DNA of 64,000 nucleotides from a virus. Its lineage: Duplodnaviria > Heunggongvirae > Uroviricota > Caudoviricetes. Shown one piece after another: positions 3,479 to 53,100 of the stretch (its first letter is position 1; every line of letters begins with the position of its first letter). The stretch is from IMG/VR virus record IMGVR_UViG_3300032007_001569. One strand, given 5' to 3'. The position numbers were made by a program, and so were the translations under genes. The notes below the pieces were generated by a model, which was given only the letters and a program-made list of their open reading frames with translations, searched no databases and was not told the DNA's origin.

Positions 3479-3754
3479 TTATATCAACGCGGTAATTTTG
3501 AAATCCTTGGCGAAGTCTTCGGGAGAGACAACCTTGTCGTCACTTCCGTCATCGGCTCCATAGAAAACCGCAACCTTTCCGTTGCAGGTGTTCGCCACAC
3601 CGGTTTTGCCGGTCGCTAGTTCAACAACCTCTATGGTGTGGCAACGCGGTTCGTTCATAACCAATTTGGCGTATTCGTTCATGCTGTCTCTCCCCCTATT
3701 GCCGCATCGTCGTTGATCCTGTTTGTCTCTGAGCTTGGCTCTATTATACACCAT
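3479..3754 (-). CDS. hypothetical protein
   Basis: 91-aa ORF directly downstream of promoter P1. Confidence 0.3.
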   Translation of the reverse strand: MVYNRAKLRDKQDQRRCGNRGRDSMNEYAKLVMNEPRCHTIEVVELATGKTGVANTCNGKVAVFYGADDGSDDKVVSPEDFAKDFKITALI

Positions 3755-3789: not shown

Positions 3790-4293
3790 CTAAATCATTT
3801 CAACGACTTGCCCTGTAATAATTGTTCTGTTGACATCAATAATGCGCTGGTTCCTGCTTCCGCGAAACGGCAGCGATAGACACTTTTGCTTAATATCAAA
3901 AGCTCCGTCAACTATTACGTCGCAGATGGCGGCAAATTCAATTTGCGCATCTGTTTCAAATAGATCGTCATAACTGTAACCGGTGTAAACCCACAGTTTC
4001 TTTTCTGGATGATAGAGCTTAAATCTGCCACCGACATATGTAGTAAACGGGATGTTTGCTTCGGCAAACGGTTCCCCGCCTGATATTGTCAGCCTGACAA
4101 TGTTTGGATCGTCCAAACATCTAAATAGCTTTTCGTCGGTTTCCTTTGTATAAGGCATTCCGCCAAACCAGTTCCATGTCTGCGGATTGTGACAGCCTGG
4201 ACAATGGCGGGCGCAACCCTGTACAAACAGAGTCGCGCCAACGCCAAGGCCATTGTTAATGTCATATGTTTCAATTCCTGCGTATCGCCACAT
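3790..4293 (-). CDS. nrdG: Anaerobic ribonucleotide reductase activating protein (radical SAM)
   Basis: 167 aa with a CARHCPGCHNP (CxxxCxxC) cluster, sitting next to nrdD. Confidence 0.75.
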   Translation of the reverse strand: MWRYAGIETYDINNGLGVGATLFVQGCARHCPGCHNPQTWNWFGGMPYTKETDEKLFRCLDDPNIVRLTISGGEPFAEANIPFTTYVGGRFKLYHPEKKLWVYTGYSYDDLFETDAQIEFAAICDVIVDGAFDIKQKCLSLPFRGSRNQRIIDVNRTIITGQVVEMI

Positions 4294-36213: not shown

Positions 36214-36219
36214 AAAAAA

Positions 36220-36295
36220 TGGCGGCGGCGGGATTTGAACCCGCAGATAAGTAAGGTTTGAGCTTACCGCGTCTGCCGAATTGCGCCACGCCGCC
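36220..36295 (-). tRNA. tRNA with anticodon CAA (type I, Leu-like decoding)
   Basis: Manual fold: acceptor GGCGGCG/CGCCGCC, anticodon arm GGTAAG-CTCAAAC-CTTACT, T arm GCGGG-TTCAAAT-CCCGC. A short variable loop is unusual for a Leu identity. Confidence 0.6.
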
Positions 36296-36304
36296 AAATA
36301 ATAA

Positions 36305-36376
36305 AGCCAGCACAGGGACTTGAACCCTGAACCCCGCGCTTACAAGGCGCGTGCTCTGCCATTGAGCTATGCTGGC
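36305..36376 (-). tRNA. tRNA-Thr (anticodon TGT)
   Basis: Acceptor GCCAGCA/TGCTGGC, D arm GCTCAATGGCAGAGC, anticodon arm CGCGC-CTTGTAA-GCGCG, T arm CAGGG-TTCAAGT-CCCTG. Confidence 0.75.
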
Positions 36377-36740
36377 AAAATATCGGCTGATCTCTCCTAT
36401 CTCACGCTACCTGCGGCCTGAACACCATTGGTTGGTTCGCCGTTGCCTCTCCTGCGGCATTTCCTTTGCGCCGCTTGCCACGCCTCGCGCTGTTGAACCA
36501 GATTGACCAGCCGATAAATCGAGGTTGATTTTCAAACGATGCGCGCGTCATCCACGTCGCCAACCTCTTCCGCCTATTCACACTCGTCTGTGCAAGACCA
36601 ATCCTCCGCGAAACTCCGCGCGAAGAATGGCTCTATAATAATAAGTCTTGGCATTAATAGGCATTAAGCCGAGCGCGACTCTGATGACTGAGCCGCACTT
36701 CCCTATTGGAGTTTGGGCTTAAAATACGGACTAAGCCGCT

Positions 36741-36817
36741 GGTCGAGATGACATGATTTGCACATGCGGCCTCACGCTCCCAAAGCGTGCGCTCTGCTGA
36801 CTGAGCTACATCTCGCC
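36741..36817 (-). tRNA. tRNA-Pro-like (anticodon TGG), possibly degenerate
   Basis: Canonical D arm TAGCTCAGTCAGCAGAGC and anticodon arm CACGC-TTTGGGA-GCGTG. There is one acceptor mismatch and an atypical T loop, TGCAAAT. Confidence 0.45.
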
Positions 36818-37033
36818 GTTGATTTTGTTCCACCGCTGCGCCGCCAGGAGTGGCAAAGGCGCAATGTAAGTCATGGGCTTTACGGGGCATCTCTTCGATG
36901 AACGATTGCACCGCACAAAATAACCATCTATACCATAGTCCTGATAGTGGCTGATCTTCTTGGGAACCTTACCGCAGCCCTTGCATGGGCGAAGAACAAT
37001 GCCGATTGATGCCGGTTTGACAGCCACAATCAT
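36806..37033 (-). CDS. hypothetical small zinc-finger protein
   Basis: 75 aa with CKGCGK...VRC. Its 3' end overlaps the tRNA by about 12 nt. Confidence 0.3.
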   Translation of the reverse strand: MIVAVKPASIGIVLRPCKGCGKVPKKISHYQDYGIDGYFVRCNRSSKRCPVKPMTYIAPLPLLAAQRWNKINGEM

Positions 37034-37476
37034 TCCTCCTTCGGAGTGAATATGTCCGAATCCAGTTTTGGTTCTGGTACTGATTCAATTCCCTTGACCA
37101 TCTTGTAATACTTCAAATACTCTCGATCCACGAGCTGCATGTCGTTTATCATATCCTCGACAACGGCGCGGTTCCGCAAATTATCTCCAAAGGTTTGTTG
37201 GATTGCGTTCAGCTTCGCGCTGTATTCATTGGCGGTCAAGCCTTTCGCAAAATACTTATCCAGCACCACGTCTTTGCGGTGTTTACAGAAAATGCAGACA
37301 TACGGTTCGATGATGCTGATGCTACACTTGTATCTGTCGCCGTAGTATTGCATATCCCGTTCTGTTGACACTTCAAGATACCAGGGGAAATCAATATACT
37401 TGTGCTCGCATTCTTTCGGAGGCGCGATTTTGACAGGCGCGGCTTCTTTTCTTTTCCTTCTCCCGAACCCAAACAT
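37030..37476 (-). CDS. hypothetical protein
   Basis: The start was moved to the internal Met MFGFGRRKRK. Confidence 0.35.
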   Translation of the reverse strand: MFGFGRRKRKEAAPVKIAPPKECEHKYIDFPWYLEVSTERDMQYYGDRYKCSISIIEPYVCIFCKHRKDVVLDKYFAKGLTANEYSAKLNAIQQTFGDNLRNRAVVEDMINDMQLVDREYLKYYKMVKGIESVPEPKLDSDIFTPKEE

Positions 37477-37644
37477 AATCAAACCTCCTAAAAAGTCGCT
37501 GCCGGTCGGAGTTGCACCGCCCTCCCCCACTGTTTAGCCAGGGTGTACCACTGTTATACGAGACAGCTAACCGGGCGACCAACCCGGAATTATGTTAGTT
37601 TCTGCGCGCCGACTTACGACTCACTGGTTGCTGGCGCGGGTCTG

Positions 37645-37732
37645 GTGGTAGCGGCAGCGGGAGTTGAACCCGCACGGGTGAAGCCCAGTAGATTTTAAGT
37701 CTACTGCGTACTGCCAATTTCGCCATGCCGCC
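37645..37732 (-). tRNA. tRNA-Leu (anticodon TAA), class II, encoded CCA
   Basis: Anticodon arm GTAGA-CTTAAAA-TCTAC, long variable arm, T arm GCGGG-TTCAACT-CCCGC, and a 3' ACCA. Confidence 0.7.
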
Positions 37733-37934
37733 ATAGTCTACGCCAATTTGATACTGTACAGGCCGGACTTTACGGATTCTGATTTCCTGCCTTCCAGATG
37801 TGCGCATCATCTGACGCCATCCGGCCTGTAAGCCGCGCTCTTTCTGGCGGGTTAAGCGCGGGAGCCAACATTAATATTGAATGAAACCGGAGAAAAATGC
37901 AGGAATCATGTCGTTTACCTCGCTTTGTTACTGA

Positions 37935-38094
37935 TCGGGAACCTGGGACTCGAACCCAGGCAAAAACACGGCTTATTGGTGACGCTGGCGGGTCTTGCAC
38001 CCGCATACCCAAACTTGTTGAATGGCGCGCCAACGCTTTACTTTTGAAGCTACAGCGTCAAGGCCGCTGCTCTAACCGACTGAGCTAGTTCCCG
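37935..38094 (-). tRNA. tRNA gene interrupted in the anticodon loop by an 83-nt insert; predicted mature anticodon TAT (Ile-like) if the insert is removed between positions 34 and 35
   Basis: A perfect 7-bp acceptor pair CGGGAAC/GTTCCCG, a canonical D arm TAGCTCAGTCGGTTAGAGC and a T arm CTGGG-TTCGAGT-CCCAG lie 160 nt apart. The anticodon stem GCGGC...GCCGT flanks the insert at 37977-38059. Confidence 0.5.
37977..38059 (-). ncRNA. 83-nt tRNA-like insert nested inside the interrupted tRNA
   Basis: It has its own 7-bp terminal helix GACGCTG/CAGCGTC followed by ACCA, a D arm GCTT-CAAAAGTA-AAGC and a T arm GCGGG-TGCAAGA-CCCGC. The anticodon region is degenerate. Confidence 0.35.
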
Positions 38095-38100
38095 AAATGG

Positions 38101-38172
38101 AGCACTGGACGGGAGTTGAACCCGCCACATCAGATCGGAGGTCTGATATGTTACCAAATACACCACCAGTGC
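38101..38172 (-). tRNA. tRNA, probable Gly (anticodon TCC)
   Basis: Acceptor GCACTGG/CCAGTGC, anticodon arm TCAGA-CCTCCGA-TCTGA, T arm GCGGG-TTCAACT-CCCGT. Position 33 is C, which is atypical. Confidence 0.55.
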
Positions 38173-38441
38173 GAATCCGGTCTCTAAACAGCAAAACTTG
38201 ACCGGCGCGCGAGAGCAGATGCCGCACTCTCAACACAGTTTTTCGAGGGGCGTCCAGTTGGCACTTTGGTAGGACGTGATTACGCCGGGGTTACACCGAC
38301 AACCTCTATTGCAGACCCCATGTGACACTCGCGACGTGATGATAACCTATCCGCGCCGCGAGCGCCTGTTTCACGAGCTGGCCTACCCGACCGCATTGGC
38401 ATTCCGGCCTTCTGACCGGCGCTGTTTGCGGTGAAGTATAG

Positions 38442-38513
38442 AGCAGACAACGGGGATTGAACCCGCATTTCCGGCTTGGGAAGCCGGGGTGCTACCGATT
38501 ACACCATACCTGC
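38442..38513 (-). tRNA. tRNA-Gly (anticodon CCC)
   Basis: Anticodon arm CCGGC-TTCCCAA-GCCGG, T arm GCGGG-TTCAATC-CCCGT, and an acceptor with two GU pairs. Confidence 0.6.
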
Positions 38514-38617
38514 ATCCGGGGCGGTTTGCGTTGCGTCATGCTGCGCGCCGCAATGCGCAACGCCGATTCTCTGCGGCATTTTGGGACGCACACCGCCAGC
38601 TTTCCCACAATACTATT

Positions 38618-38692
38618 TGGTGCCGCATATGGTGGAGCGTGCGGGTTCTGCCCCCGCAACCTTCGGCTTGCAAAGCCGACGCGCTACTGTTG
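38618..38692 (-). tRNA. tRNA-Ala-like (anticodon TGC) with non-canonical D and T loops; encoded CCA
   Basis: Anticodon arm TCGGC-TTTGCAA-GCCGA. The D loop AACAGTA lacks G18G19 and the T loop GGCAGAA lacks TTC. Confidence 0.45.
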
Positions 38693-38872
38693 CGCCAACG
38701 CCCCATTTACGTGTTCCAGATGCGGTGTGATATGTGTCTTTGGCTTATGGCCGTTCAGACCAAGGCGTCTGTTGTACACCATCCGCTTACCATATCTCCT
38801 TGCATCTGGCATTGTCATTCTCTCTGAGGCATTACGTATGCTCTCAGATCATCCAGGCCGCTACCCGACTTC

Positions 38873-38946
38873 TGGCACTTTGGATAAGAATTGAACTCAT
38901 ACCTATGACCACAAGGTCATCGTGCTATCCTTTACACCACCAAAGT
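38873..38946 (-). tRNA. tRNA-like gene with a 6-nt anticodon loop (CTTGTG; Thr-TGT-like) and encoded CCA
   Basis: Acceptor ACTTTGG/CCAAAGT + G + CCA, and T arm ATGAG-TTCAATT-CTTAT. The anticodon stem ATGAC/GTCAT encloses only 6 nt. Confidence 0.4.
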
Positions 38947-38988
38947 ATAGTCCGCATAGCTCATCGCTGTAAGCCTTAATGCGGATGA

Positions 38989-39076
38989 TGCGGGCGACTG
39001 GATTTGAACCAGCAAAGGCCAATTAAGACCAGTCGGCTTCTAAGGCCGATGCGTGTGCCAATTTCGCCACGCCCGC
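38989..39076 (-). tRNA. tRNA-Leu (anticodon TAG), class II
   Basis: Acceptor GCGGGCG/CGCCCGC, anticodon arm TCGGC-CTTAGAA-GCCGA, a variable arm with a 4-bp stem, and T arm GCTGG-TTCAAAT-CCAGT. Confidence 0.7.
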
Positions 39077-39120
39077 AAGATCGGCGGAAATCGAACGCTC
39101 TACCCAAAGAAATGCTAGAT

Positions 39121-39144
39121 AGAAGGATGAACGTTCCAGCCGCC
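39121..39144 (+). repeat. Copy A1 of the conserved motif AGAAGGATGA-N-agccg
   Basis: agaaggatgaacgttccagccgcc; see the finding on the 5-copy motif. Confidence 0.6.
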
Positions 39145-39260
39145 TTTGAAGGAAATCGGAAATTTGAAGCTCTTTCTTTCACTTTGCTCTACCAACTGAG
39201 CTACATCGCCGGTAACGGCGATGGCTGGAGTCGAACCAGCGACACAAGCCTTGGCATAGA

Positions 39261-39282
39261 AGAAGGATGAGCTTCACAGCCG
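39261..39282 (+). repeat. Copy A2 of the conserved motif
   Basis: agaaggatgagcttcacagccg. Confidence 0.6.
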
Positions 39283-39302
39283 ATCACCTTTCAACTGTAC
39301 TT

Positions 39303-39331
39303 ATTATAACACCGTTAATCTATTTTGTCAA
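39303..39331 (-). promoter_or_regulatory. sigma70-type promoter P4, positioned to drive the tRNA array
   Basis: Minus strand TTGACAAAATAGATTAACGGTGTTATAAT with upstream AAATATTTCAAGAAAAATTGTCAAAAGG. The next downstream features are tRNAs at 39288 to 36220. Confidence 0.6.
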
Positions 39332-39363
39332 TACCTTTTGACAATTTTTCTTGAAATATTTTT

Positions 39364-41604
39364 TTAGAGCAGTTCGCCCATGAAATAATCCACATCATAC
39401 GGCGTGATGACGGGAATCTGCGTCTCTTCCCCATCGAGACCAACGCGGTAAACGGGCGTATTGTCCGGGCTGAAGATAATGTCTGCATCCTGCTTGTCGG
39501 CCACATGGAGACCCCGCGCGGCCATATTGAGCGCAATCAGATCATACATGTTCGGCTTGGCAATGTCCGTAAAGGCTTCGCAGATTACCTTGACGCGGTT
39601 GTAGTTTGTCGCCGCATTGTTCGGCCTACATACCGTATATCTTGATTCATACAGATCAAGATTCATGTCCATCCAGATAAAGCGCTTTTCAACGCAGTCG
39701 AACAGAACGGGGACGCTTGTTGTGCTGTTTGTCTGCAGTTTGATCGCCATTTCGACCGTGGACGGCTCGAAGATTTCTCCGTCGTCCAGGCCGCTCCGCT
39801 CCATCCAGCCAAACCGACAATTCGGCAAATTGCAAAACGGAATGCGCGTGAAGGCATAGACCTGATACGCGATATATCGCCCGCCGTTTCTGGTAACACT
39901 GTCGATGTCAACATCCAGAAACTCCGCGACGCCATCGCCGTCAACGGAGCCTCCGTCTACAATGTCACCGGAATGGTAGCCCTTAAACTTATCATCGCGC
40001 ATGTTATAGTAGGCAACTTCACCCATTCGGTTGAAGTCTTTATCCAGGACTGTCGCGGAAAGGTCAATGTCAACACGGTTATATTCCGTATTCGTCCACC
40101 AGATGAAGCCGCGCACGACCTTGGCGTCGCTGCCAATCGGAACCTTACTGCCCCTAGTCAGCGTCTTGTTTCCGCTGGACGCGCTACGCTGGCTGAAAGG
40201 CACAATGTAGTCCTTCATGGCTTCGTCGATGTATACGCAGCCCATGTTGTCGCGCTTTGCGTAGTTGATCTTCAGCGCTCGCTCACAGATATTGACCACC
40301 GTGTGACAAATCCCGTCAGTCATTTCCGGCAATTCATTTGGAATAATAATTGCCTTGGCGACATTGCCCTTCGGGAAGAATACCCTTGTTTCGCGCTTCT
40401 TTCCGCGCTCAATGAAAGACTGACGAACCTGCAGGAGAACAGATGTTGAAACCTTGTCGGCAATCATGGCGAAATGATTGATAACCGTGTTGACTTCGGC
40501 ACGATCCTTTGCATCGCGGATGAGCTTGTCAAGCCGTCGCGCAAATTCGCCCGGCCTCTTCATCAATAGCTCAGATACTTCAACGACATTATGCTTCTCC
40601 AGTCCGGTTTCAACCTGACCACCGAAATAGAGCGGCTTCTTTTCCTCGCGCAACATGTGGAAACAGTCGCGCACATTCTGATATTGACCACCCATAAACT
40701 CCGCAGGATGGATGATCTCGCCAATGCGCAACCATTCGTCACGATAACGGAACAGGTCTTCGTCGATCCTGCCCAGCTTCGCTAGGAGCTTCATGATGAA
40801 CCGGCGCTCAGGGCGACGCATGTGCTTGAACCTCGTCTCACTGGCAAGGCTCAAATCGCCATCAGACATGGCGACAATCAGGCGAAGAACGTCTGTGGCC
40901 GTGTTCATATACTTGCTGACAGCCTCGAAATTCCCTTCTGGGTTATTCTTCATCAGGAGATTGGCAATATAGGCCGCATTCTCCTTCATGGGAATCACGT
41001 CGGGCAGACGCTCAATCAGCGCGGGATATGAGGCAAAGATCGTCTTGATGTCCTCCAAATCCTGCTTGGACAAGGATGTCTTTGAGGCACATAGATTGAC
41101 GAGAATTTCACCCAAATCATTCTCATTGCCGATGCTCAGGACTGTCTTTTTGCCCGCGTTCAGAAGAGGCATACGAGGCTCAGACTTATACTCCGGCATC
41201 CATTGTCCAGCCGTGAAGTAGTGGAGAATTGCGTTGACAAACAGCTCCGCGTCGGACGCCTCCGCCACCTGCTGTGGGAAATTCGGGTACATGGGCTTAT
41301 AGGTCACGTCAGCACCGCGCAACGCCTTGAGCATGGGAAGGAGTGCTTCATGAAGCCCGATGAGCGCCGGGCGGGTGTATGTCATGAGAACCTTCAGCAC
41401 GTCGAAATCAAAAGTATAGCCCAGCGCCTCAACGTTGTTTGTTACGGCGACGACATAGCGGGCAATCTCTGTCTGCGCGCCTTCAACCTGGTCGAAGTGC
41501 GTGTCCATCGGCTGGATGGTCAGCTTGTTCTTTCGGCGCAAGAGGATTTCGCTGATGTTGAACTCCATTGTATCAATCCTTTCAAAATAAAAGTAGGAAA
41601 TCAT
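39364..41604 (-). CDS. Large protein with a C-terminal TerD-like (Ca-binding tellurite-resistance/stress) domain
   Basis: SGDIVDGGSVDGDGVAEFLDVDIDSV...RYIAYQVYAF matches the TerD pattern GDxxxG..DGDG..E.L.VDL....I.F.V.IY. The N-terminal roughly 500 aa are unassigned. Confidence 0.45.
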   Translation of the reverse strand: MISYFYFERIDTMEFNISEILLRRKNKLTIQPMDTHFDQVEGAQTEIARYVVAVTNNVEALGYTFDFDVLKVLMTYTRPALIGLHEALLPMLKALRGADVTYKPMYPNFPQQVAEASDAELFVNAILHYFTAGQWMPEYKSEPRMPLLNAGKKTVLSIGNENDLGEILVNLCASKTSLSKQDLEDIKTIFASYPALIERLPDVIPMKENAAYIANLLMKNNPEGNFEAVSKYMNTATDVLRLIVAMSDGDLSLASETRFKHMRRPERRFIMKLLAKLGRIDEDLFRYRDEWLRIGEIIHPAEFMGGQYQNVRDCFHMLREEKKPLYFGGQVETGLEKHNVVEVSELLMKRPGEFARRLDKLIRDAKDRAEVNTVINHFAMIADKVSTSVLLQVRQSFIERGKKRETRVFFPKGNVAKAIIIPNELPEMTDGICHTVVNICERALKINYAKRDNMGCVYIDEAMKDYIVPFSQRSASSGNKTLTRGSKVPIGSDAKVVRGFIWWTNTEYNRVDIDLSATVLDKDFNRMGEVAYYNMRDDKFKGYHSGDIVDGGSVDGDGVAEFLDVDIDSVTRNGGRYIAYQVYAFTRIPFCNLPNCRFGWMERSGLDDGEIFEPSTVEMAIKLQTNSTTSVPVLFDCVEKRFIWMDMNLDLYESRYTVCRPNNAATNYNRVKVICEAFTDIAKPNMYDLIALNMAARGLHVADKQDADIIFSPDNTPVYRVGLDGEETQIPVITPYDVDYFMGELL

Positions 41605-41720
41605 GGCGGCTGAATTGTGGTCATGGGCGACAACCCATGTAATTTCAAAGAAGGAAGCCGCCGTATAGCCTAAACCATATCCACCGGAAATTGAGGCATC
41701 AAGTTACATCCAAAAATAAC

Positions 41721-41743
41721 AGAAGGATGACGCCTCATAGCCG
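41721..41743 (+). repeat. Copy A3 of the conserved motif
   Basis: agaaggatgacgcctcatagccg. Confidence 0.6.
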
Positions 41744-41761
41744 GATGGGCGATTGATTATC

Positions 41762-42304
41762 TTACGGCCATTCGCCCAGCGGACACGCGGCCTTCTGCGT
41801 GCCGTACAGCGCTCCCGTCTCCTCGGGGAGATCGGTGCAGAAGAACACGCCTTCCATCACGCCGAACAGATTGTGGGCGATATTTTCGTAGAGCGTGCTG
41901 CACTGTCCGTAGATGTCGCCAAGGTCATCATTAAAATACTGAACGACCTTATTCTTGAACACGACATAGGTCAGATCATTTGTGAAAATGCCCCTGATGC
42001 GCTTCACAAACGAGAACGCATCGTTCCCCTTGAACGCGGTCTGGAACACGTCAGCCATAGCGGTGGGCACACCGACAAAACCATTGGCCGGAACCACATT
42101 GACATACAGCGTGACGTTGCCAAATTCCTTCTGGTCTGGAAGGAGCTGGGACAGCGCCTCCGCCTTTGCACCGCTATCGACATACAGCGTCAGCCGATAA
42201 TTTTCATCGTCAAAGACGACATGCACTTCGGGATCGTGACGGAACATCTCTGCCGTTTCTTTTGCGAAAGTGACCCACGGTGGGGCGAGTTTAATCTTTG
42301 CCAT
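41762..42304 (-). CDS. hypothetical protein
   Basis: 180-aa ORF flanked by motif copies A3 and A4. Confidence 0.4.
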   Translation of the reverse strand: MAKIKLAPPWVTFAKETAEMFRHDPEVHVVFDDENYRLTLYVDSGAKAEALSQLLPDQKEFGNVTLYVNVVPANGFVGVPTAMADVFQTAFKGNDAFSFVKRIRGIFTNDLTYVVFKNKVVQYFNDDLGDIYGQCSTLYENIAHNLFGVMEGVFFCTDLPEETGALYGTQKAACPLGEWP

Positions 42305-42384
42305 TTATCTTTTCTCCTTTTCTGTTCGTGTCGTTTGGAAAATGCGGAAATCGGGCGATCAAACAATATCGTCTATTAAAAGGA

Positions 42385-42407
42385 AGAAGGATGACCGCCC
42401 ATAGCCG
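42385..42407 (+). repeat. Copy A4 of the conserved motif
   Basis: agaaggatgaccgcccatagccg. Confidence 0.6.
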
Positions 42408-42475
42408 CAAAGTGACTGTGCTCCCTTCGGAAATCAAAGCGCCAGAACATCAATAATTACCACTTATTTGTTAAT

Positions 42476-42497
42476 AGAAGGATGACGCTTTCAGCCG
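42476..42497 (+). repeat. Copy A5 of the conserved motif
   Basis: agaaggatgacgctttcagccg. It directly abuts the 3' end of tRNA-Lys. Confidence 0.6.
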
Positions 42498-42510
42498 AAG
42501 GCCGACGAGC

Positions 42511-42585
42511 TGGTGGCCTGACCGGGAGTCGAACCCGGCATATGCACATTAAAAGTGTGCTGCCATACCGCTTGGCTACCAGGCC
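42511..42585 (-). tRNA. tRNA-Lys (anticodon TTT), encoded CCA
   Basis: Acceptor GGCCTGG/TCAGGCC, D arm GCCA-AGCGGTA-TGGC, anticodon arm GCACA-CTTTTAA-TGTGC, T arm CCGGG-TTCGACT-CCCGG, and a 3' ACCA. Confidence 0.8.
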
Positions 42586-42666
42586 AGATAGTGTCGGTCT
42601 CTCCCGACTGCCAATCCTCTTTGTTCATTTGAAATGTTGCTTTTGAGGATTCAGCGCACCTTTCAT

Positions 42667-42754
42667 TTGGCGACGGCGGCTGGATTTGAACCAGCGGAGG
42701 CGCGAGCCTCGGCGGTTTTCAAGACCGCTGCAATAAGCCACTCTGCCACGCCGC
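42667..42754 (-). tRNA. tRNA-Ser (anticodon TGA), class II, encoded CCA
   Basis: Acceptor GGCGGCG/CGCCGTC, anticodon arm GCGGT-CTTGAAA-ACCGC, a 16-nt variable arm, T arm GCTGG-TTCAAAT-CCAGC, and a 3' GCCA. Confidence 0.75.
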
Positions 42755-42758
42755 CGCA

Positions 42759-43106
42759 TTATTCCCAGCCTAAAAACTCATACATCCTTTTGAGATCGTC
42801 TGGATCGTCAAGGCGGAATGAATAGCTTTCATTGCCACTATACAATGTTATCACATAGATGCTACCATCTCGTGTGTCAAACTTGAAACTGACATACTTA
42901 AACATACGCCGCCCTTCATGGTTCACATCGGCCATATTCGCCCAGCTATTCATGAACATGATGTTGTCATATATCTTGCTGACTTCCTGAATCGTCATCA
43001 GACAACCTCCATGGTTTATGATCGGGCGTGGATTTGCACCACGCATGTATGTTGCCATACCGTTTATTAGGCTACATGGAAGGACATTACATCTTCGTGC
43101 TCCCAC
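42759..43106 (-). CDS. hypothetical protein
   Basis: 115-aa ORF. Confidence 0.35.
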   Translation of the reverse strand: MGARRCNVLPCSLINGMATYMRGANPRPIINHGGCLMTIQEVSKIYDNIMFMNSWANMADVNHEGRRMFKYVSFKFDTRDGSIYVITLYSGNESYSFRLDDPDDLKRMYEFLGWE

Positions 43107-43182
43107 TTAACTGGTGGGCGCTACTGATTCTCGCTACACACAACCAACGCCTGTCTACCTTATTCCAGCACCGATCAGACTG

Positions 43183-43482
43183 TTACCACAATTCATTCTG
43201 CAGGTCATAGTGCTTCCGATAGGCATTGCCATCTGAAACATCTTCGCTGTGCCTGACACGGCGATTCGACTGCTGCTTCAAAAACCGCTTGCGCTCACTG
43301 CTGCTGTTCTCCTTGACGTGGTTTCCGGTGACAATCCACCTTCCATCCACATACTCTTCCTTCACCCAGCCGACAAACGGCAGATACCGACCGGCCACAA
43401 TTTCCAGCAGACGCCTCCGCGCCTTGCGCTGTACCTTACGGCGATAACCACGATCCCTGTTCCTGGCGATTCTCTCTTCCAT
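43183..43482 (-). CDS. hypothetical basic protein
   Basis: 99 aa, rich in Arg and Lys. Confidence 0.3.
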   Translation of the reverse strand: MEERIARNRDRGYRRKVQRKARRRLLEIVAGRYLPFVGWVKEEYVDGRWIVTGNHVKENSSSERKRFLKQQSNRRVRHSEDVSDGNAYRKHYDLQNELW

Positions 43483-43589
43483 TTATCATCCCTCCTGATA
43501 AATTGGCTGAGGCTGTGAGGGTCGAACTCACATTGCGGGAGTCAAAGTCCCGTGTCCTACCGTTTGAACGAAACCTCATTGTGCCGGAA

Positions 43590-47640: not shown

Positions 47641-47707
47641 TGTTTGCGGTAAAATGGAACTGTAGCAAAGGGGCACCAAAAAGTGAGCGGGCAATCGGGC
47701 AAAAAAA

Positions 47708-50006
<2,299 letters not shown>

Positions 50007-50008
50007 AA

Positions 50009-50135
50009 AGGGGCTCCAAAAAGTGAGCGTTGGGGCTCCAAAAGGGGCTTCAAAATGTGAGCGTTGGAGCTCCAAAATGTGAGCGAAAGGGCGCGACCCT
50101 GGGGCTCCAAAATGTGAGCAAAAGGGCTTCGCTGT
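50009..50135 (+). repeat. Array of 4-5 direct copies of the IS terminal motif (ggggctccaaaa[a/t]gtgagcg) inside the IS, just after istB
   Basis: The same about 20-nt motif forms the terminal inverted repeats and probably represents IstA binding sites. Confidence 0.6.
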
Positions 50136-50154
50136 TTTTCCCCTGCCGACGGCC

Positions 50155-50300
50155 TGAAAATTTAATCCACGGTTCCCTTGACATGGGGCCCTCCGTGGGG
50201 CGGTTTTCAGGTCAATGGGCCAACCCCGCGCTTCGCTGGATTGACCTGGCAAACAGCCTAACCGCCCCACGCCCATGTCAAGGGACTTTCGCGGATTAAG
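50155..50300 (+). repeat. Large nested palindrome inside the IS right end (about 38-bp imperfect arms plus inner 13-bp and 9-bp arms)
   Basis: ggcctgaaaatttaatccacggttcccttgacatggg pairs with cccatgtcaagggactttcgcggattaagttttcaggcc. The inner pair is ccgtggggcggtt / aaccgccccacgc. Confidence 0.55.
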
Positions 50301-50644
50301 TTTTCAGGCCTGAGCTCTGTATCCCCACGACTCTACTGCGGTGTTGGCAGGTGCTCACTTTTTGGGAGCCCTTTTGCTACACTTTTACGTTGACAAACAC
50401 ACGCTTGCATGACCTTTAGGTCTTCGTTTGTATATTTCACACCGACCACAAACCGTATGCCGGTCAGCGGTCAACTATTATCTCTTCCCATGCTACTTGC
50501 CCAACGGCTTTCACGCTACAACCAATAATTTTGCGCCATGCTTAACAAGCTCATGACAACCCGGCTTCACCGGGATAGGTGTTACTCCTTCCTGAAAATC
50601 ATCATATTGAAAAATACCTTCTTGTTGGTTTGTTCGTTCATGAG

Positions 50645-50830
50645 TTATGTCTTCGCGTGAACCTCAACACGAACCTTAGCCCACCCGAAATTCAGAAGAT
50701 GCTTTTCAAGCTCTTCCGCATCCTTGTAGGCCGCTTCCTCGCAGAAATAGTCGCCGCACTCCTTTGTCTCTGACGGCTCCGCGTCATACTTATTTTCCTT
50801 CCAGATCATGACCTTCAGATAGTACCTCAT
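50645..50830 (-). CDS. small protein translationally coupled to the DGR reverse transcriptase
   Basis: The RT stop TGA overlaps this ORF's ATG (ATGA) at 50827-50830. The product is 61 aa and acidic. Confidence 0.35.
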   Translation of the reverse strand: MRYYLKVMIWKENKYDAEPSETKECGDYFCEEAAYKDAEELEKHLLNFGWAKVRVEVHAKT

Positions 50831-51834
50831 TCAGTTTCCTCCGATATTTCAAAACGGTTCTTCTTGAGCAATTCATCCACCATGCTATCAAGGCTGGCAA
50901 TCAGGCGCTTACAGTTCCCGTGGCTCAGGTGGTTTTTCATTGAGCTATATATCACATCGAACTCATCCACGCTCATTTCGCCATTCTGAGCTTTTGCAAT
51001 CAGCTTGCGAATCTTTTTCTTCATGCCGCGCTTCTTTGCGCCATTGAGAAGGCGAATGACTTTGCCATCGTCCGTCACGTAGAAATGAAAGCCCAGGAAT
51101 TTGATTCCCTTCCGCAGCGGGACGATCTCTGTTTTCTCATTCAGCGTCAAATCCAGGCTTGCCAATAGCTTTTTAATGTCATCAAGCAGAGCTTTCAGCG
51201 CTTCGCGGCCTTCTGAAATGACATAGAAATCGTCCATGTATCTTCCGTACCTGCTGAACCCTCTTTCGGTTGTTATCATTTCGTCCAAGCGCATCAAATA
51301 CATCAGGGCGAAAACCTGGCTTGCCTGATTGCCCAACGGGAGGCCGATGCCCTCCGTGCTGTCAATTAAAAGATTACAAATCCACCTGATCCTCTCGTCG
51401 TCAAAGTGCTGCTCGACGACGCGCTTCATTTTCTCATGATTGATTGAATAGAAGAACTTCCTTATATCGCATTTCAGAATATAACCGTTTAGTCCGTGCT
51501 CCGCATAGAAACCGGACAGATGATCGGACAGCGTGTTCAGCCCGAAATCCGTTCCCTTGCCCACCTGCCCGGCAAAATTGGTCGAAATGAAGCTGTCTTT
51601 CAGCTTCGGCAAAAGGACATAATCACATAGGCAATGCTGAAGAACTTTGTCGCGGAACGAACCGACCATGATGACGCGACGCTTTGGCTCAGTCACAATC
51701 AGCTCATGGTATGGCGCTACTTTATATGTTCCATCCACGAGTTGCCGCTTCATTAATTGAATATTCTCCAAGGCATAGCGCTTAAATTCCTGCGCTTCCG
51801 CGCTGCGCCTTCTTCCGAGAAGCGACCGCTTCAT
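50827..51834 (-). CDS. Diversity-generating retroelement reverse transcriptase
   Basis: RT motifs are in order: CDIRKFF (motif A), the DGR-specific GIGLPLGNQASQ ([I/L]GxxxSQ replacing the group-II QGxxxSP), RYMDDFYV (YMDD) and KFLGFHF. The adjacent TR/VR pair supports the call. Confidence 0.85.
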   Translation of the reverse strand: MKRSLLGRRRSAEAQEFKRYALENIQLMKRQLVDGTYKVAPYHELIVTEPKRRVIMVGSFRDKVLQHCLCDYVLLPKLKDSFISTNFAGQVGKGTDFGLNTLSDHLSGFYAEHGLNGYILKCDIRKFFYSINHEKMKRVVEQHFDDERIRWICNLLIDSTEGIGLPLGNQASQVFALMYLMRLDEMITTERGFSRYGRYMDDFYVISEGREALKALLDDIKKLLASLDLTLNEKTEIVPLRKGIKFLGFHFYVTDDGKVIRLLNGAKKRGMKKKIRKLIAKAQNGEMSVDEFDVIYSSMKNHLSHGNCKRLIASLDSMVDELLKKNRFEISEETE

Positions 51835-51994
51835 AGACCGATAAAGGTTCCCGAAGTCGGTCAGCTTCTCAAAATCAGATAATGACTTTTGTATTTATCC
51901 CACCCTCTTTCGGCGAGAAAGGCTATACGCTCTTTTGATGTGGCGCTCTCCTTTGAGCTTCAACAGAAACCTAATCGCTCTCACAATCCACCAG

Positions 51995-52075
51995 AACGGG
52001 CGGACACCGTTGCAATAGTCAGAGTCGTTCCAATTCAGGACGCCATTGGAGTTGACGTTGCAGACGTTGCCAGCT
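51995..52075 (-). repeat. DGR template repeat (TR)
   Basis: 81 bp homologous to 52523-52603. It lies 160 nt upstream of the RT start on the RT strand. In the target frame it encodes AAC AAC AAC AAT AAT AAC GAC GAC TAT AAC codons. Confidence 0.85.
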
Positions 52076-52101
52076 ACAGCGTATAGCCCATAACGGTTTT
52101 G

Positions 52102-52467
52102 CTATAGTTTTGATCTTGCAGAAAGCGTCATATACTTTATGTCTGCAACGAGGGAAGACCAGGAATTGCACGTAACCTCGCTTATTAGCTTGGCATGAAG
52201 GCTGTATTCAGCCAGCTTCAAGAACTTGTTGCAGCATGATATGACACTCGTTTGCATATCGAATCGCGCGTCTTTCCGCTTCTGAGTGTCTGTTTTGATA
52301 CTGTTCGCGTCCTCTGAAAGACAATATATGTCGATAGCGCAGCCTTGTAACTTGTCGGAAAGCCTACGGAATCTGACAGGATAATGGCTTTTGCTCGTGG
52401 TGATGTCAAGCACACTTGTCATTAATTCACTGGCCTTTTCTCCGATGATAAATCTCTTCTCTGGCAT
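52102..52467 (-). CDS. Accessory variability determinant (Avd)-like small protein
   Basis: A 121-aa ORF located exactly between the target/VR and the TR, the canonical Avd position. No independent sequence confirmation is possible here. Confidence 0.5.
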   Translation of the reverse strand: MPEKRFIIGEKASELMTSVLDITTSKSHYPVRFRRLSDKLQGCAIDIYCLSEDANSIKTDTQKRKDARFDMQTSVISCCNKFLKLAEYSLHAKLISEVTCNSWSSLVADIKYMTLSARSKL

Positions 52468-52473
52468 TAAGAT

Positions 52474-53100
52474 TTAAGATTCGACAACCTCAAAATTCGA
52501 GATGGAAGAGTTCAAAATGCAAAACGGGCGGACACCGAGGCAACAGCCAGAGCCGCCCCAATCCAGGACGCCATCGGAGTCGACGCGGCAGACGAAGCCA
52601 GCATAATCTTTGTGATCGCTGACGGGCGTAGCCAGCCACCACCACTTGCCATAGGCAGGAAGATACTGACGATAGCGGCGGTAAAGCTCAGTTGTGAGCA
52701 AACTCACATGGTCGCGGCAGCACTTGCCGACGTTGGTTCCATCGTCTGCGGTCAGATTGACATTGTGCATGATGACATTCTGTCGGCCAACCGCGTCGGC
52801 CAAGCTGTCGAAGAAGGGGCCGTTCAGGTAATCGCGCACTTTGCTTGCCTTGTAGTTGTTATCTTTGCCGAACTCCATTTCCTTGACAAAATCCTTTGTA
52901 ATCAGCGCCGTCGTCTCCGCGCTGTGACCGAGTACGATATATTTGACATCGCCAATCTTGACCACTTTGCCACACTCGACATCGCCCAGCGGCACGCTGT
53001 TCTTGTTGATCTCATCAACATACAGCGTGATGGATTTGCCGTCGTCAGACTTTTCTACCTTCACATTGATACCAGTATTGTTGACAACATTGATCTTCAT
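52474..53100 (-). CDS. DGR target protein (208 aa) with a C-terminal C-type-lectin-like variable region
   Basis: The VR maps to residues about 166-193. The C-terminus GKWWWLATP...YAGFVCRVDSDGVLDWGGSGCCLGVRPFC fits the CLec-fold target pattern (W-rich, G[FV]RP). Confidence 0.75.
   Translation of the reverse strand: MKINVVNNTGINVKVEKSDDGKSITLYVDEINKNSVPLGDVECGKVVKIGDVKYIVLGHSAETTALITKDFVKEMEFGKDNNYKASKVRDYLNGPFFDSLADAVGRQNVIMHNVNLTADDGTNVGKCCRDHVSLLTTELYRRYRQYLPAYGKWWWLATPVSDHKDYAGFVCRVDSDGVLDWGGSGCCLGVRPFCILNSSISNFEVVES
52523..52603 (-). repeat. DGR variable repeat (VR) within the 3' end of the target gene
   Basis: It differs from the TR at 15 positions, all of them TR adenines on the coding strand (11 A to G, 2 to C, 2 to T). 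It ends with an invariant GC-rich 15-mer cggtgtccgcccgtt (IMH-like) shared with the TR. Confidence 0.85.

Follow-up and report, generated by a model that had tools for sequence, protein, structure and literature searches.

Diversity-generating retroelements (DGRs) have their prototype in Bordetella phage BPP-1, where the cassette has the order mtd-avd-TR-brt and the variable region (VR), located at the 3′ end of a gene for a target protein with a C-type-lectin fold, differs from the template repeat (TR) specifically at adenines. The BPP-1 repeat is 134 nt long and contains 23 adenines. A hairpin or cruciform downstream of the VR is a feature of the Bordetella target site that is not universal among DGRs, and the SQ motif ([I/L/V]GxxxSQ, motif 4) is specific to the reverse transcriptases (RTs) of these elements. 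Here we describe a DGR on a stretch of 64,000 nucleotides from the tailed-phage record IMGVR_UViG_3300032007_001569 (Caudoviricetes), called the window below. All coordinates refer to this 64-kb window, in which target, avd, TR and RT all lie on the minus strand in the canonical DGR order target-avd-TR-RT (Table 1). We are highly confident that this is a complete DGR of a large (~140 kb) phage which is active at present or was so very recently.

Two sets of published observations are relevant for the comparison. In the DGR RNA of Bordetella, the sequence just upstream of the TR forms an 11-bp duplex with spacer nt 59-70 (avd:Sp, 'cPRT Stop'), a stem-loop with A-minor adenosines directly follows this duplex, and an Avd-binding tetraloop stem-loop lies just downstream of the TR; equivalents of these elements were predicted in 207 other DGRs (Handa et al., bioRxiv 10.1101/2023.10.23.563531). 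Proteins with the DUF6273 domain were described as C-lectin-like DGR targets in the gut phages nd4 and nd12 ('tgt2'), with the VR being a beta-hairpin at the C-terminal end of the domain (Baykov et al. 2023, PMC10743442), in the Faecalibacterium phages (prophages) Lelie, Roos and Pioen (PMC11792537), and in Toutatisvirus, where it was also remarked that some phages keep the target without the DGR (bioRxiv 10.1101/2024.10.15.618418). DUF6273 DGR targets are therefore already published, and the locus is a well-documented example of a known system and not a new one.

The repeat pair and the genes of the cassette

In a repeat search of the window, TR and VR were recovered as one ungapped direct repeat of 83 nt with 82 % identity and an offset of 528 nt, and the base-by-base comparison of the two copies found no homology past either repeat end. 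The initial annotation had proposed a DGR from the adenine pattern of this pair, and redoing the alignment confirmed that both the repeat and the pattern are real. Read in the frame of the target, the adenine-bearing TR codons are AAC AAC AAC AAT AAT AAC GAC GAC TAT AAC (five times AAC, twice AAT, twice GAC and one TAT), exactly as listed before. All 17 TR adenines are located at codon position 1 or 2 (P ~0.001 for 17/17 missing position 3), which bears out the claim that the adenine differences are confined to these two positions.

The counts needed a small correction. The previously given 15 of 18 template adenines is one too high in both numbers, as the VR is mismatched at 14 of the 17 TR adenines. 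Similarly, the statement that all differences fall on adenines is right for the interval 51995-52603 (14/14), but over the full 83 nt there is a 15th mismatch, TR C51994 against VR T52522, which is a non-adenine C to T change at codon position 3 and synonymous (TTC to TTT). It is situated one base 3′ of the 15-mer CGGTGTCCGCCCGTT shared by both copies, and hence just outside the interval that had been inspected. If 15 mismatches were scattered at random over the 83 positions, 14 or more of them would hit the 17 adenines with P = 3.7e-12 (hypergeometric). The variable adenine-derived sites span 52596-52538 and affect codons 169, 172, 174, 176, 180, 182, 183, 185, 186 and 188. The mutable codons all have C or T as their last base, so stop codons cannot arise there, a point already made in the initial annotation that follows directly from the genetic code. 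The adenine-masked TR pattern matches only the TR and the VR across 64 kb, with 0 matches expected; this search and a count of non-adenine matches revealed no second VR, so the window carries a single one.

The target open reading frame (ORF) matches Pfam DUF6273 and phrog_9958. Its structure model (predicted local distance difference test score, pLDDT, of 89) adopts a C-type-lectin fold, and its fold matches include dozens of animal C-type lectins. In this model the ten variable residues are placed on predicted strands 169-173 and 179-183, which would form a beta-hairpin, and on the next predicted strand, 187-190. The VR is part of a coding target with the lectin fold and mutable codons unable to become stops, as is typical of DGRs. 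By our own arithmetic, the ten mutable codons allow about 1e10 protein variants (15^7 x 4^3). No second DUF6273 paralogue was found in the window by tblastn, and a scan of one genome per GTDB species returned no relatives of the target. Two paralogues ~20 kb apart are present on the 156-kb contig IMGVR_UViG_3300031555_002371 (loci L039 and L061), where only the L039 copy adjoins a TR and an RT.

The Avd-like protein had no match in Pfam, NCBIfam or PDB by sequence, either as a single sequence or as a profile, and its identity came only from the PHROGs match and the comparison of folds. The AlphaFold2 model is a four-helix bundle (pLDDT 89). The top Foldseek matches are 2rld and 2gsc with template modelling (TM) scores of ~0.8, which we take to be members of the 23S-rRNA-IVS/Avd family, and Bordetella Avd (4dwl) is matched with TM scores of 0.69/0.77. 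For the RT, no NCBIfam model scored above its cut-off, and the best PDB match is the Bordetella bRT 8ub7 (E=8e-35), ~20 orders of magnitude ahead of retron and group II intron RTs (~1e-13). The motifs LGNQASQ and YMDD can be read in the sequence. A scan for sigma-70 promoters and terminators around the cassette gave nothing better than shuffles and was not used as evidence.

Variation of the VR and alternative readings

The population data consist of the DNA of members of the target cluster together with their own TRs, obtained via exact-protein look-ups, and of one locus (L011) from a scan of metagenome contigs, which yielded three loci in all. The cluster of the target at 90 % identity has 21 members; 15 were aligned, and their mean column entropy is 2.23 bits at the ten adenine codons versus 0.09 elsewhere. 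Eight TR/VR pairs with distinct VR alleles were compared (window, L006, L010, L011, L017, L018, L019 and L063), setting aside in the counts the fixed C/T boundary mismatch at repeat position 81. The VR differs from its own TR in 94/136 adenine cells versus 2/520 non-adenine cells, and each of the 17 TR adenines varies in at least one of the eight alleles. The TR is nearly constant: it is identical to that of the window at 83/83 positions in six related loci and at 81-82/83 in two more, and the flanks differ by 5-16 %. Between lineages with such flank divergence, the 66 VR sites without a template adenine showed 0-1 differences and the 17 adenine sites 6-13, which fits repeated overwriting of the VR from a conserved TR. 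The TR of L018 has private changes at repeat position 17 (A>T) and 36 (C>T, synonymous), and both are present in the VR of L018. This is a natural marker-transfer experiment, in which non-adenine TR markers have moved into the VR.

The closest genomes are also informative. L010 shows 0 differences from the window over 5597 flank bases and differs only at 52544 (G/T) and 52539 (C/T), both of them adenine sites. The same two differences are found in L002, a 143-kb JGI contig, over the 5771 nt which it has in common with the window. L002 ends inside the VR, its position 1 corresponding to window position 52597, and position 1 of the Logan contig L003 corresponds to 52537, so that the two contigs, from independent assemblies, mark the two edges of the variable stretch. 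Breaks of this kind would be expected if several VR alleles co-existed. At its other end, L003 stops near the IS21 end. An invariant VR and variation away from the TR adenines, the two results named beforehand as contradicting a DGR, were sought in five ways, and the outcome supports the DGR call: the VR varies, it does so at TR adenines, and the earlier suggestion of an active or recently active element is backed by the allele data, the adenine specificity and the complete set of parts (RT, Avd-like protein, lectin target). Taken together, the five tests show that the DGR has been active in the immediate lineage of the window.

The same breaks bear on the VR sequence of the window itself. Two assemblies of near-identical genomes broke exactly at the VR, where assemblers struggle, and the allele of the window could be an assembler chimera of co-existing alleles instead of a real haplotype. 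We consider this unlikely, as the exact 208-aa protein is on record from both JGI/IMG and ENA, and the locus would count as a DGR whether or not this haplotype is real.

Several points weigh against an active DGR, or limit what can be said about it. The first one concerns the start of the RT. The alignment with 8ub7 begins upstream of the called ATG, and homology to bRT and relatives reaches ~12-20 codons upstream of 51834, so in the lineage of the window a conserved N-terminus comes without an ATG and it is uncertain which codon serves as the start. Where relatives have a conserved ATG, TTA is found in the window and its close relatives (at about 51882). Upstream of 51834, translation table 11 offers only two in-frame starts: ATA at 51894, immediately behind a TAA stop, and CTG at 51864, which is TTG in L018. 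Second, we detected no hairpin or cruciform 3′ of the VR, unlike at the target site of the Bordetella phage; the DNA fold of 52545→52440 has -5.2 kcal/mol (z=+1.44) and is weaker than 191/200 shuffles. Third, both non-adenine exceptions among the eight pairs belong to L063 (copies at 3496-3578 and 4024-4106), whose VR departs from its own TR by a synonymous C>T at position 37 and a T>G at position 58, and whose TR has acquired one more adenine, at position 34. Moreover, common descent links the alleles, which means that the 94 differences cannot be counted as 94 independent events, and the two near-identical contigs may stem from related samples. Finally, RT-dependent retrohoming through an RNA intermediate is what we infer by analogy, and no cDNA or homing event was directly observed.

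The missing ATG raises the question of whether the cassette is now dead in the lineage of the window, with the adenine pattern and the allele diversity being relics. The first ATG lies ~16-20 codons inside the conserved N-terminus, and decay is known from the wider family. Relatives of the target are encoded at 42 IMG/VR loci, of which ~26 have a full-length RT downstream, most of these also having an Avd match and, ~520 nt past the VR, a TR; ~13 have neither an RT nor Avd/TR, and in L031 and L035 avd and RT are reduced to fragments. Among the close relatives of the window, L014-L016 retain the target while avd, TR and RT are gone. The VR of these three loci carries five non-adenine differences from the TR of the window, which fits an allele frozen after the loss of the cassette; this allele (protein P0004) was found in 5 contigs, three of which come from different runs. 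The most distant loci (L047-L058) display many non-adenine mismatches in the fixed 83-nt comparison, which we attributed to different repeat boundaries, and they were left out of the counts.

However, a dead cassette is very improbable in the case of the window. The close relatives all share the TTA and still bear different VR alleles, and diversification within this TTA-bearing lineage argues that the RT enzyme still works. L010 combines zero flank differences in 5597 bases with two differences at VR adenine sites, and assemblies break at the VR. Substitutions between lineages in the region upstream of the RT ATG (51834-51897) are mostly synonymous, and because of that the region appears to be translated. 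The RT, Avd and target ORFs, as well as the helices flanking the TR, are all intact. Even less can be said for an ordinary duplicated segment shaped by diversifying selection or recombination without reverse transcription, which we regard as extremely improbable: positive selection by itself could gather changes in the variable residues, which occupy an exposed hairpin of a binding fold, but selection on amino acids would not restrict changes to the adenines of the other copy (94 versus 2), would not leave the 66 non-adenine VR bases, among them synonymous sites, unchanged between lineages with 5-16 % flank divergence, and would not copy the synonymous TR change at position 36 of L018 into the VR. 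The immediate neighbourhood, moreover, contains genes for an RT and an Avd as well as a structured TR RNA. We therefore maintain the reading of a complete DGR with current or very recent activity.

RNA elements around the TR and the proposed mechanism

The region around the TR was aligned for ten loci with targets 53-100 % identical, and analysed using RNAalifold and explicit pair counts. A long-range duplex between sequences upstream and downstream of the TR, GGGCUAUACGCU and AGCGUAUAGCCU, appeared in the minimum free energy (MFE) fold of the TR transcript. It is 100 % paired over the ten loci, and four of its pairs are compensatory. Two hairpins were identified in addition: a tetraloop hairpin shortly after the TR, with loops that include UUCG and UACG among relatives, and a second hairpin after the duplex, followed by an A-rich run, TAAATACAAAAGT, which is near-invariant across the aligned loci. 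In the three helices together 99.5 % of cells are paired, versus 36-55 % with the partners slid by 1-3 columns, and compensatory changes occur at 11 of 23 pairs; none of 500 shuffles matched the observed covariation. The MFE fold of the whole TR RNA alone is not significant (z=-1.3), and the helices are credible only because of the comparative analysis. No Rfam family covers the TR region, the matches in the window being tRNAs only.

The elements agree with those of the Bordetella DGR RNA in order and spacing, the 3′ arm of the duplex being at spacer nt 61-72 versus 59-70 in Bordetella. By this analogy, the tetraloop hairpin is a candidate for binding Avd.

In DGRs, directionality comes from a site for initiation of mutagenic homing (IMH) at the 3′ end of the VR that is not identical to its counterpart in the TR (IMH*). 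At the 3′ end of the VR described here lies the GC-rich 15-mer, which, as noticed in the initial annotation, both copies have in common and which was proposed as the IMH. TR and VR diverge right after it, starting with the VR-T/TR-C mismatch (52522/51994). This mismatch at repeat position 81 is constant in 8/8 TR/VR pairs, and therefore transfer from the TR stops within the shared 15-mer or ahead of it. An IMH fits both the location of this 15-mer and the end of transfer there, and by analogy with other DGRs the 15-mer may serve as its core. Since the VR-side sequence also encodes the conserved VRPFCILNS, its conservation is not assignable to IMH function.

Putting these parts together, an RNA spanning the end of avd, the 83-nt TR and a ~100-nt spacer would fold into the long-range duplex that brackets the TR and the two hairpins. 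A complex of RT and Avd would bind this RNA, copy the TR into cDNA and misincorporate opposite template adenines. The cDNA would then replace the VR at the 3′ end of the target gene, with the transfer stopping within or just before the GC-rich 15-mer, and in this way ten residues on the beta-hairpin surface of the DUF6273 protein would be randomised without stop codons. As in Bordetella, synthesis of the cDNA may be cis-primed from the spacer, proceed through the TR and halt just before the duplex. The stop would then come ~3 nt after TR/VR homology has ended on the 5′ side, in agreement with the repeat boundary seen here. The roles given here to cis-priming and to the individual RNA elements are those we infer from the Bordetella system.

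Genomic surroundings and comparison with known systems

The window belongs to a large phage, with genes for a DNA polymerase, NrdD, a DnaB-like helicase, an RNA ligase and methyltransferases, and related contigs measure ~135-147 kb. Directly upstream of the target, the radical-SAM-like and Y07B-like ORFs are present in all close relatives, including those without the DGR, except L063, which has the Y07B-like ORF and lacks the radical-SAM-like one. The 61-aa ORF at the other end of the cassette is present in all relatives and follows the target directly in the DGR-less loci L014-L016; it is probably not part of the DGR. In L006, L007, L015 and L018 (positions 1-1150), a gene for a Cas12f1-like_TNB (TnpB-type) protein of 463-485 aa is located ~2 kb upstream of the target, and its place is taken by a 208-aa and a 60-aa ORF in the window type (L005, L010).

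An IS21-family element follows the RT. It has terminal inverted repeats starting with TGTTTG, repeated GGGGCTCCAAAAAGTGAGC motifs near its ends and an 11-bp flanking duplication, CACGCTTGCAT. The insertion is intergenic, before a PAPS-reductase-like gene, and leaves the DGR uninterrupted; relatives such as L006 and L009 have an empty site. A cluster of tRNAs was identified at 36219-43578 on the minus strand, with 13 members by Rfam and 11 by ARAGORN, which gave no anticodon for the tRNA at 38873-38946 ('tRNA-???, tg').

Table 1. Coordinates of the DGR, its RNA elements and neighbouring features (window positions, unless a locus is named).
Feature	Coordinates	Strand	Remarks
DGR target gene, 208 aa	53100→52474	minus	stand-alone DUF6273/C-type-lectin-fold protein; VR near 3′ end
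VR	52602→52520	minus	83 nt; codons 167-194 of target gene
TR	52074→51992	minus	83 nt, 17 adenines; non-coding, between avd and RT gene
Candidate IMH core, GC-rich 15-mer CGGTGTCCGCCCGTT	VR 52537→52523; TR 52009→51995	minus	identical in both copies
Avd-like accessory gene, 121 aa	52467→52102	minus	phrog_3206 'Avd protein of DGR' E=2e-9
DGR reverse transcriptase	51834→50827 (called ORF, 335 aa); conserved coding to 51894	minus	RVT_1 E=2e-17; phrog_1423 E=1e-91
Long-range duplex, 5′ arm GGGCUAUACGCU	52089-52078	minus	3 nt upstream of TR; pairs with 51931-51920
Long-range duplex, 3′ arm AGCGUAUAGCCU	51931-51920	minus	61-72 nt downstream of TR end
Tetraloop hairpin, candidate Avd-binding stem-loop	51971-51956	minus	21 nt downstream of TR; 5/6 pairs compensatory
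Second hairpin and A-rich run TAAATACAAAAGT	hairpin 51918-51898; element 51918-51885	minus	directly after duplex; 2 pairs compensatory
Radical-SAM-like ORF, 353 aa	54184→53123	minus	phrog_24834 E=6e-101; Pfam Radical_SAM below cut-off
Phage_T4_Y07B-like ORF, 107 aa	54401→54078	minus	upstream of target
61-aa ORF	50645-50830		overlaps RT stop codon; no family match
IS21-family element	47641-50399		~430 nt downstream of RT stop
istA	47708-49279	plus	in IS21-family element
istB	49263-50006	plus	in IS21-family element
Tyrosine-recombinase-like ORF	58797→57823	minus	Phage_integrase E=3e-12; few kb from DGR
Tyrosine-recombinase-like ORF	57449→56460	minus	weak XerA-like match; few kb from DGR
Target in DGR-less locus L014	2324-2947
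Target in DGR-less locus L015	3001-3624
Target in DGR-less locus L016	1089-1712

To a specialist this is an ordinary DGR, and its value is that of an unusually clean natural data set. It comprises eight TR/VR pairs, one of them with non-adenine TR markers copied into the VR, near-isogenic genomes distinguished solely by VR adenine sites, and sister lineages without the cassette, in which a frozen VR provides a natural control. The RNA elements around the TR that cryo-electron microscopy lately defined for the Bordetella DGR gain support from covariation in an unrelated phage lineage. Contig ends at the VR edges can be used as a cheap marker of active DGRs in metagenome assemblies.

Regarding the function of the target, binding of a ligand by the lectin-like domain would be expected by analogy. 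The target is a stand-alone C-lectin domain of 208 aa without a recognisable virion-attachment domain; its gene comes directly after a radical-SAM-like one in all close relatives except L063, and in the window it is surrounded by genes of replication and nucleotide metabolism. Because of this the target may be a soluble or intracellular binder (e.g. of a variable host factor or a defence protein), or an adhesin of the capsid or for mucus, and not a tail receptor-binding protein. We consider this unlikely; if true, it would extend phage DGR targets beyond the recognition of host receptors.

When compared with the BPP-1 DGR, the locus has the same gene order, a VR in the same position of a target with the same type of fold, and TR-to-VR differences with the same adenine specificity. 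The bRT is the best solved homologue of the RT, the accessory protein is predicted to form an Avd-like four-helix bundle, and the RNA flanking the TR is alike, with a duplex followed by a stem-loop and adenosines, and a tetraloop hairpin just after the TR. Differences were also noted. The repeat is shorter in the window, the VR is not followed by a detectable hairpin or cruciform, the target gene is located among genes of replication and nucleotide metabolism and not among tail genes, and the 208-aa target lacks the beta-prism and beta-sandwich domains of Mtd, according to the published description of the latter.

A megablast search of 50,697 phage records found no nucleotide match to the cassette. 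The best deposited relative of the target is nd12_tgt2, with 37 % identity over 159 aa (tblastn). Identity of the window target to the published ones is only 24-37 %, and these have 234-294 aa versus 208 aa in the window. The phage of the window is much larger than the phages described, and its 64-kb stretch contains a single VR, in contrast to two targets each in nd4, nd12 and Toutatisvirus. The C-lectin fold of DUF6273 and the VR in a C-terminal hairpin are common to the window target, nd4 and nd12, the Faecalibacterium phages and Toutatisvirus, and the retention of a target without the DGR, remarked on for Toutatisvirus, is reproduced here by L014-L016.

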